From positions 1 to 5,832 of IMG/VR virus record IMGVR_UViG_2534681772_000006: a stretch of 5,832 nt of DNA; one strand, 5' to 3'. This DNA comes from a virus. Its lineage: Duplodnaviria > Heunggongvirae > Uroviricota > Caudoviricetes. Below the pieces are notes generated by a model, which saw only the letters and a program-made list of their open reading frames with translations, did not search any database and was not told the DNA's origin. Of the stretch, positions 633-1,451 are shown in pieces (position 1 is the stretch's first letter; each line of letters opens with the position of its first letter). A program made the translations under genes and the position numbers.

Positions 633-1451
633 TCATTTTCTATCTATCCCAGGGATAACAGGAGACCACGTACAACGGCAGTTGATAGCCTCTCCCGGCA
701 GCACCCATTCACCATCAAGATACAGCCCTTTATCGAGGTCGAACTCTTTACCGTCAGATTTCACATGGGATGTCCTTGGCTGCTTCCCGGCGTGTGAGTG
801 ACGCCAGATTCCTTTGGTGATGCCTAACTTCTTCTGCCGTTCAGACTGAATTACCGCTGTAGCTTTGTTGTTCTGATCGCGTGCGATCGTCTCAGCGCGT
901 CTGCGTGTAATGCCATATCGCTTAACCAGTTCATCAGTGAGATAGCCAAGGTCACGACCACGGCTGACAGACTGCATGACTATCGTCTCAACCTGTGTGT
1001 GATAGTGTTCAGGTATGGATTTAATCAGGTTGACGTTCTCGTTAACGACAGCCTGCATCACGTTCTTAAGCTCGTCATTCATTGTGAACTTAACGGTAAA
1101 TCCGCCAGCCTTTAACGCTGAGTGTAACGAAACGTCGGTGTTGCGCAGTGTCTTATCAACGAAGCGATCAGCCAGTTTCTTAGCCAGTTCATTGAATTTA
1201 TGCTCCCACTGCTTGCCTAGTCTGGACAATCTGCGCTTTAACTCATTCGCGGGACTGGAATCCATCGCCATGTTGTTTTTGTATGCGCCCTCAAGCCAGT
1301 ATCGGTATGACTTATCCATCTCCCTAACCAGTTTGAGAAGCTCAGAGCGATACCACTCATGAACTCCGGCATTAGCTCTGACTGGACGAAGGGTTTTCCG
1401 GGTCTTCGAATCCTTCTTCGACGGACTCGTTTTCGTGCTCTTCTTCGTCAT
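633..1451 (-). CDS. Phage head morphogenesis protein, MuF-like / SPP1 gp7 family (minor head protein)
   Basis: 272 aa. The C-terminal region carries the signature I associate with Mu F-like proteins: [18 protein letters not shown] ... [25 protein letters not shown] ... [10 protein letters not shown]. It sits immediately after the portal gene, as in SPP1-like head modules. The start is uncertain: the ATG at 1451 overlaps the portal 3' end by 80 nt, and the next in-frame ATG is at 1319. Confidence 0.8.

Follow-up and report, generated by a model that had tools for sequence, protein, structure and literature searches.

Gene organization of the window

The window analysed here is a stretch of 5,832 nucleotides from the IMG/VR virus record IMGVR_UViG_2534681772_000006. 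Its phage genes lie on the minus strand in the order terS, terL, portal, MuF and DUF2213. The small terminase gene (terS) occupies positions 4381..4914 and the large terminase gene (terL) positions 2907..4427. The RefSeq start of terL is the ATG at 4427, with GGAG 8 nt upstream, and the mechanical ORF list gives a TTG at 4433. From ATG 4427, terS and terL share 47 nt (4381..4427), which is a second long same-strand overlap in the module; between terL and the portal gene, a single nucleotide is shared (TAGTG at 2907). The portal gene (1372..2907) encodes a protein of 511 residues of the Phage_portal_3/DUF1073 type (Pfam PF06381, E=8.5e-92; PHROG 146, E=1e-133), and these coordinates agree with the RefSeq CDS. 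It is followed by a MuF / SPP1 gp7-type head morphogenesis gene, whose longest ORF (633..1451, 272 residues) we propose as the true CDS, and by the first ~93 codons of the DUF2213 gene (start at 498, cut at 219). The RefSeq product name of the portal protein varies between 'anti-CBASS protein Acb1 family protein' (WP_000481699.1) and 'DUF1073 domain-containing protein', and an NCBIfam scan gave a match to TIGR01555 that was sub-threshold only. Pfam and PHROGs identify the protein as a portal, and the Acb1 name looks like a misleading label.

IS3-family elements are found at both ends of the window, at 1..~218 and ~5430..5832, in the same orientation on the plus strand. The left end is the 3' end of a transposase ORF, and the right end is orfA, with the ALIL frameshift pseudoknot of the IS3 family at 5762..5832 (Rfam RF01497, 64.6 bits). 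The 5.2-kb phage segment between the two elements is a prophage fragment in which the downstream gene is truncated. Positions 219..5429 match, at 100% identity, a section of a lambdoid-type prophage in E. coli TW10590 that is apparently intact. In the window copy, the MuF and portal genes may not be expressed any longer as part of a productive phage. The portal-MuF junction is rare in E. coli, being present in 20 of 5,426 complete genomes at 93.6-100% identity; the flanking IS3 elements, by contrast, are present in thousands of E. coli genomes. A megablast search with the portal-MuF region as query gave no match among 50,697 phage records, and protein-level searches alone were informative for its relatives in these records.

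The MuF product matched PF04233 over residues 153-261 with 54.2 bits (cut-off, 29.6) and TIGR01641 with 42.8 bits, above the cut-off of 39.65. PHROG 324 'head morphogenesis' spans residues 4-271 (E=2.8e-101). The gene is located directly downstream of the portal gene in the packaging module, and Jamet et al. used this portal-adjacent context to define MuF proteins (PMC5576092). Homology and position together place the gene in the Mu F/gp7 family, at its usual site after the portal. Sequence and fold searches of the PDB with MuF returned generic helical bundles only and no meaningful relative.

Geometry of the portal-MuF overlap

The portal and MuF ORFs share 80 nt (1372..1451, minus strand). 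This segment encodes portal residues 485-511 and the portal stop codon in frame 0, and MuF residues 1-27 in the portal +1 frame. A preliminary description of the window, made from its letters alone, had pointed to this segment as GAA/GAG-rich DNA encoding an acidic tail in one frame and a basic tail in the other, and the ORFs bear this out. The proposed MuF start ATG (1449..1451) lies inside the portal codons TAT-GAC (Tyr-Asp). At the other end, the portal stop TAA (1372..1374) spans two MuF codons, taking its T from the end of Ala27 (GCT) and its AA from the beginning of Asn28 (AAT). The following 52 nt (1320..1371) are intergenic according to RefSeq and encode MuF residues 28-44 in the long form. 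They lead to the Met45 codon (1317..1319), which is the RefSeq start and, in the long form, an internal and nearly invariant Met of helix 1. The MuF frame contains a TGA at 1466..1464, and the only later ATG, GTG or TTG codons are ATG 1451 and ATG 1319 (Met45). Thus, a codon scan agreed with the earlier remark that none of these start codons lies between the portal stop and ATG 1319. ATT, ATC, ATA and CTG codons were likewise absent from the MuF frame between the two ATGs.

Both frames are open over the 80 nt and each comes from a protein with homologues, as in dual-coding DNA. When the terminal codons of the portal gene were shuffled, 15-20% of trials gave an overlap of 80 nt or more that included a start codon, and 8% of the portal codon positions carry such an overlap. 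Since an open +1 ORF is not improbable alone, the reality of the overlap rests on comparative evidence. The same shuffles are in keeping with the RefSeq model, in which MuF is translated from Met45, the 52 nt separate the two genes and the +1 frame further upstream is a by-product of the acidic-tail codons that is not translated, because chance alone produces +1 frames of this length not infrequently.

Conservation upstream of Met45

The preliminary description had raised the possibility that the true MuF start lies near Met45, and had proposed an alignment of homologues to see whether they consistently start near MDKSYRYW (residue 45). They do not. Twenty-five homologues of 51-95% identity, from Pseudomonas and Frateuria among others, were aligned, and conservation was clear upstream of Met45. 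A variable K/R/T/S-rich tail, basic as in the window, is followed by the conserved pattern tLRpvRPNAGveAWYRrqL..v.EM..S..YWL. Met45 itself is at least 90% conserved in this alignment, with the long forms included. The conserved motif, residues 20-30 (1362..1394, minus strand), straddles the portal stop and is seen in both the 25-homologue alignment and the codon alignment. A tblastn search of one genome per species gave 78 loci, and the match begins at query residues 1-25 in all but one of them (77/78). Furthermore, 1,015 phage records matched MuF by tblastn, typically from residue 21-22.

We then took as the start of each locus the most downstream start codon that keeps the motif, for the 73 loci that have both genes. 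With this rule, an overlap of at least 38 nt is needed in 21 of 73 loci (20 without the dubious locus L044), which belong to Enterobacterales, Pseudomonas and allies. An overlap of 8-35 nt is needed in 8 loci, and 11 loci have classical overlaps of 1 or 4 nt (Gluconobacter, Acetobacter and sphingomonads). No overlap is needed in 33 loci, whose portal genes end 3 to >1,600 nt upstream. The MuF motif was found in all of these classes, including the loci with no overlap and those with 1-4 nt. Because the motif is present in non-overlapping relatives, its conservation is not a shadow of portal coding, and because it is present throughout, MuF residues ~20-44 are real protein. As these residues are conserved and no other upstream start exists, ATG 1451 alone can encode them in the window. 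The alternative offered in the preliminary description, that the overlap is real, is the one supported. According to the alignments, conservation of residues 20-44 extends through Proteobacteria and further, whether or not the portal gene overlaps, and this argues against the RefSeq model. An Enterobacterales/Pseudomonas clade shares a conserved overlap of 38 nt or more. The position equivalent to the start codon (xAT-GAC) has ATG in loci of Pluralibacter, Pantoea, Enterobacter and Pseudomonas.

Substitution patterns in the two frames

A codon alignment around the motif was made from 18 sequences of the clade. In the overlapped motif, variation peaks at MuF third positions (mean entropy 1.44 versus 1.04 and 0.92). 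MuF Arg residues are retained through CGN/AGR switches, and the portal residues at these sites change freely. The portal stop lies inside MuF Pro/Ala-Asn codons (ccT-AAy) in 14 of the 18 sequences, and CCT/GCT-AAY is found at the portal-stop site in 16 of them. The near-fixed T at this MuF third position makes the portal TAA, and can be read as a small signature of constraint from the other frame.

Variation within E. coli was compared in eight variants. All of them (8/8) keep ATG 1451 and an open MuF frame. In the portal-only stretch upstream, all seven polymorphic sites are portal-synonymous. In 1320..1371, four of five polymorphic sites are MuF-synonymous; that is, substitutions in the segment which the RefSeq model regards as a spacer follow a coding pattern. 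Within the overlap, five sites are MuF-synonymous and portal-nonsynonymous, two are the reverse and three change both proteins. When E. coli was pooled with three clade pairs, changes to both proteins made up 17 of 47 (36%), against 59% expected for random single-base changes, a rough comparison of small numbers in which the pairs are not fully independent. The substitution pattern as a whole indicates constraint in both frames, as expected of dual-coding DNA.

The portal stop is mobile in E. coli. In L083, a premature TGA (equivalent to window position 1413) removes the last 13 residues of the portal protein, and in L084, a change of TAA to CAA (equivalent to window position 1374) adds five residues to it. 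The MuF frame is intact in both. Since both a premature stop and read-through occur, the extreme C-terminus of the portal seems to be under weak constraint, and to be the less constrained partner of the overlap.

Predicted structure of the MuF N-terminus

An AlphaFold2 model of MuF built on the alignment had a mean pLDDT of 83. It was the confident one of five AlphaFold2 models, and the other four had pLDDT of 53-61. In this model, residues 1-16 are predicted to be disordered and residues 18-20 to form a short strand. A helix is predicted at residues 28-60 with pLDDT of 88-95, and it runs through Met45 at its middle. A short form starting at Met45 would be without 17 residues of this predicted helix 1. 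Thus, under the RefSeq model the protein would begin halfway along a helix that is predicted with confidence. The first ~19 residues are of low complexity and variable in length and sequence, and are also predicted to be disordered.

Start codons and Shine-Dalgarno sequences

A weak SD-like GGA (1460..1462, minus strand) is located 8 nt upstream of ATG 1451, with an anti-SD duplex of -3.3 kcal/mol. In three relatives (L010, L015 and L023), a strong GGAGG or GGGGAG lies in the portal gene at a proper distance from the MuF start. TGGA recurs in the clade at the same distance upstream of the MuF ATG. We set its conservation aside as evidence for an SD sequence, because the same bases encode conserved portal residues.

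ATG 1319 is preceded by AGGGAG, in line with the earlier remark that GGAG adjoins this ATG without a spacer. Its presence favours the RefSeq model. It could also serve two isoforms, the long one from ATG 1451 and a short one from internal initiation at Met45, for which the near invariance of Met45 and the calculated anti-SD duplex of the E. coli AGGGAG (-7.7 kcal/mol) may be cited. Efficient initiation needs an SD-to-start spacing of 5-9 nt. AGGGAG, however, directly abuts ATG 1319 and is at the same time the Arg-Glu codons of MuF. Moreover, most relatives have no SD-like sequence at this site, where ACCGAA, GACGAC or CGTGAG precedes the ATG. These points count against both readings, and the isoform reading further has to accept a short product that has lost 17 residues of helix 1. 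We regard two isoforms as improbable.

Short gene models in public annotation

The RefSeq model of MuF (687 nt, 228 residues, e.g., WP_000361643.1) starts at 1319 and leaves the 52 nt intergenic, both in TW10590 and in all further E. coli copies that were inspected. When the 272-residue product was looked up by exact sequence in a large gene-position collection, no gene call was found. In 77 of the best 120 homologue clusters the N-terminal motif is present, their starts being spread over many positions, and of the remaining 43, ~40 begin at or after the equivalent of Met45. The uniform short annotation in E. coli and the short calls in about a third of these clusters speak for the RefSeq model. 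Against this, Prodigal allows a same-strand overlap of at most 60 bp (PMC2848648), and this limit would explain short calls made by callers of the Prodigal type. No MuF start lies within 60 nt of the portal stop in the window, and thus a caller with the 60-bp rule would fall back on Met45. It is plausible that this limit is the reason for the short calls.

Taking the conservation, the substitutions, the predicted helix and the position of AGGGAG together, we consider it very unlikely that the RefSeq model is right. It is highly probable from these comparisons that MuF is translated from ATG 1451, that the shared DNA is dual-coding and that the 228-residue form starting at Met45 is a start-site error. 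If so, the RefSeq models and about a third of the best 120 clusters miss 44 real residues, which include the family-wide motif and half of the first helix. Expression, modelling or searches with the short models would then begin from a truncated sequence. The locus would also illustrate clearly that genuine overlaps in the structural modules of phages can be missed systematically by a gene caller with a fixed limit of 60 bp. What is new here is that the 80-nt overlap is found to be real and conserved, that the public short models are truncated and that the two tails are compatible at the level of the code.

Initiation of MuF translation

Given a MuF start at ATG 1451, we propose that MuF is initiated independently at this internal, weakly SD-assisted codon. 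Ribosomes translating the portal gene would keep the MuF start unfolded and would partly occlude it, and the partial occlusion would give a low output of MuF relative to portal, consistent with the few copies of gp7 per SPP1 capsid. We infer from this arrangement that translation of portal and MuF is coupled. The RNA fold of 1381..1520 was not significantly more stable than that of shuffles (z = -0.91), and no Rfam match was found in the overlap region. The opening energy at ATG 1451 is ordinary (11.5 kcal/mol, 17th percentile of portal positions). The fold and accessibility results neither support nor exclude coupling based on structure. Termination-reinitiation at the portal stop was ruled out, since the start is 80 nt from the stop, and may operate in distant relatives that have ATGA-type junctions.

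Portal and MuF domains might instead be joined by programmed ribosomal frameshifting in the overlap, with no internal initiation. The preliminary description had noted that portal-MuF fusions occur in some phages, which is supported by PHROG phrog_2662 'portal protein' (717 positions): it matches MuF residues 22-265 over its positions 470-708, so portal-MuF fusion proteins exist in other phages. These fused architectures and the fact that both frames are open together for 80 nt are compatible with a frameshift product. A slippery site and downstream structure, suggested earlier for the region near 1372..1400, did not materialize. MuF is read in +1, but the one in-frame heptamer of the X XXY YYZ type (A AAC CCT, at 1396) would shift ribosomes to -1, and the portal stop has no +1 site resembling that of prfB. 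In addition, the local fold is no more stable than shuffles, as given above, the MuF ATG is conserved in the clade and distant relatives have separate genes with their own starts. With only a wrong-frame heptamer from the slippery-site scan and no stimulatory structure, we rejected the frameshift fusion as extremely unlikely.

Acidic and basic tails from one sequence

The portal protein ends in an acidic tail of 28 residues (end of 1372..2907, minus strand). GAA or GAG accounts for 9 of the 26 portal codons in the overlap. Shifted by one base, GAA, GAG and GAC give AAG, AGA and ACG (Lys, Arg and Thr), and hence acidity of a tail in frame 0 automatically brings a basic, hydroxyl-rich character in frame +1. 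The median charge of the portal tail is -11 in the long-overlap clade and -4 to -7 elsewhere, and that of the MuF tail is +6 in the clade and +2 elsewhere. Both tails exist, in a less extreme form, in relatives without overlap. The strongly K/T/S-rich makeup of the first ~19 MuF residues is thus linked, in the long-overlap clade, with the acidic codons of the portal. The preliminary description had suspected that the basic extension is a frame artefact of these codons. This is right for the composition of the first ~19 residues and wrong for translation, as the N-terminal sequence is conserved in non-overlapping relatives.

In the window, frame 0 would encode a disordered acidic C-terminal tail of the portal, and frame +1 a disordered basic (K/T/S-rich) MuF tail of ~19 residues followed by the motif and the start of helix 1. 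The overlap would be tolerated because one GAR-rich sequence meets the compositional needs of both tails. The example illustrates how the genetic code allows a single DNA sequence to specify an acidic tail together with a basic one. From the comparison of loci, neither gene could be identified as the one that extended into the other. All long overlaps have a length of 2 mod 3, as against 1 mod 3 for those of 1 and 4 nt, and this difference in phase means that indels in the low-complexity tails must have intervened.

It can be imagined that the overlap is itself functional, in that the oppositely charged tails bind each other electrostatically and recruit MuF to the portal and the placement of the start fixes a low MuF:portal ratio. 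We think this unlikely. If true, it would be a viral case in which overlapping frames encode segments of interacting partners.

Comparison with known systems

A close parallel is gp6 (portal) and gp7 (MuF-type minor head protein) of Bacillus phage SPP1, which has the same gene order, with muf directly after portal, and the same PF04233/TIGR01641 domain. SPP1 gp7 binds the portal and enters the procapsid in a few copies (PMC5576092, PMC6316719). By analogy, a portal-bound, low-copy protein would fit the tightly linked and presumably low-output downstream gene of the window. Outside the C-terminal MuF domain, no similarity to SPP1 gp7 is detectable. The portal of the window is of a different Pfam family (Phage_portal_3/DUF1073), and no long overlap is claimed for SPP1.

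In Edwardsiella phage GF-2, ORF3 (portal) and ORF4 (head morphogenesis) have, as deposited, an annotated same-strand overlap of 35 nt. The ORF4 product is a homologue with 50% identity, matching from residue 21. The GF-2 overlap is shorter than that of the window and falls below the 60 bp of Prodigal. GF-2 is a virulent or temperate myovirus of a different genus, whereas the window comes from an E. coli lambdoid prophage.

In several distant relatives, the portal frame runs on without a stop into long C-terminal extensions with effector-like domains (L074:1439-2458, L063:138-1307, L026:2232-2861 and L037:2036-2725, plus strand). The domains in these extensions are an ADP-ribosyltransferase exoenzyme domain (E=1e-28), topoisomerase IB (E=4e-23), and LPD13/PBECR2 and PBECR1 nuclease-type domains. 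Judging from these matches, the portal C-terminus appears to be a site for appended cargo in the family, besides MuF.

In GNAS, two frames of one exon encode XLalphas and ALEX, which bind each other. The window resembles GNAS XLalphas/ALEX by analogy, as one stretch of DNA encodes in two frames parts of proteins that are expected to associate. GNAS XLalphas/ALEX is eukaryotic, and a tail-tail interaction in the window is pure conjecture.

Classical stop-start overlaps (ATGA/TAATG) are found at the same junction in the Gluconobacter, Acetobacter and sphingomonad relatives, with 1 or 4 nt. These 1-4 nt junctions indicate that expression of portal and MuF is tightly linked in the family. In contrast to them, the start in the window lies 80 nt upstream of the stop, and its overlap is 2 mod 3 rather than 1 mod 3. 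Long same-strand overlaps can arise from extension of a gene into its neighbour (Fonseca et al. 2013, PMC3887535). The window differs from overlaps of this kind in that both tails are also present in non-overlapping relatives and in that its phase differs from that of the short overlaps. It is like them in being terminal and unidirectional, in joining two otherwise independent older genes and in the low-complexity, disordered ends of the two proteins. In summary, the portal-MuF overlap is an ordinary terminal same-strand gene overlap that involves no new mechanism.
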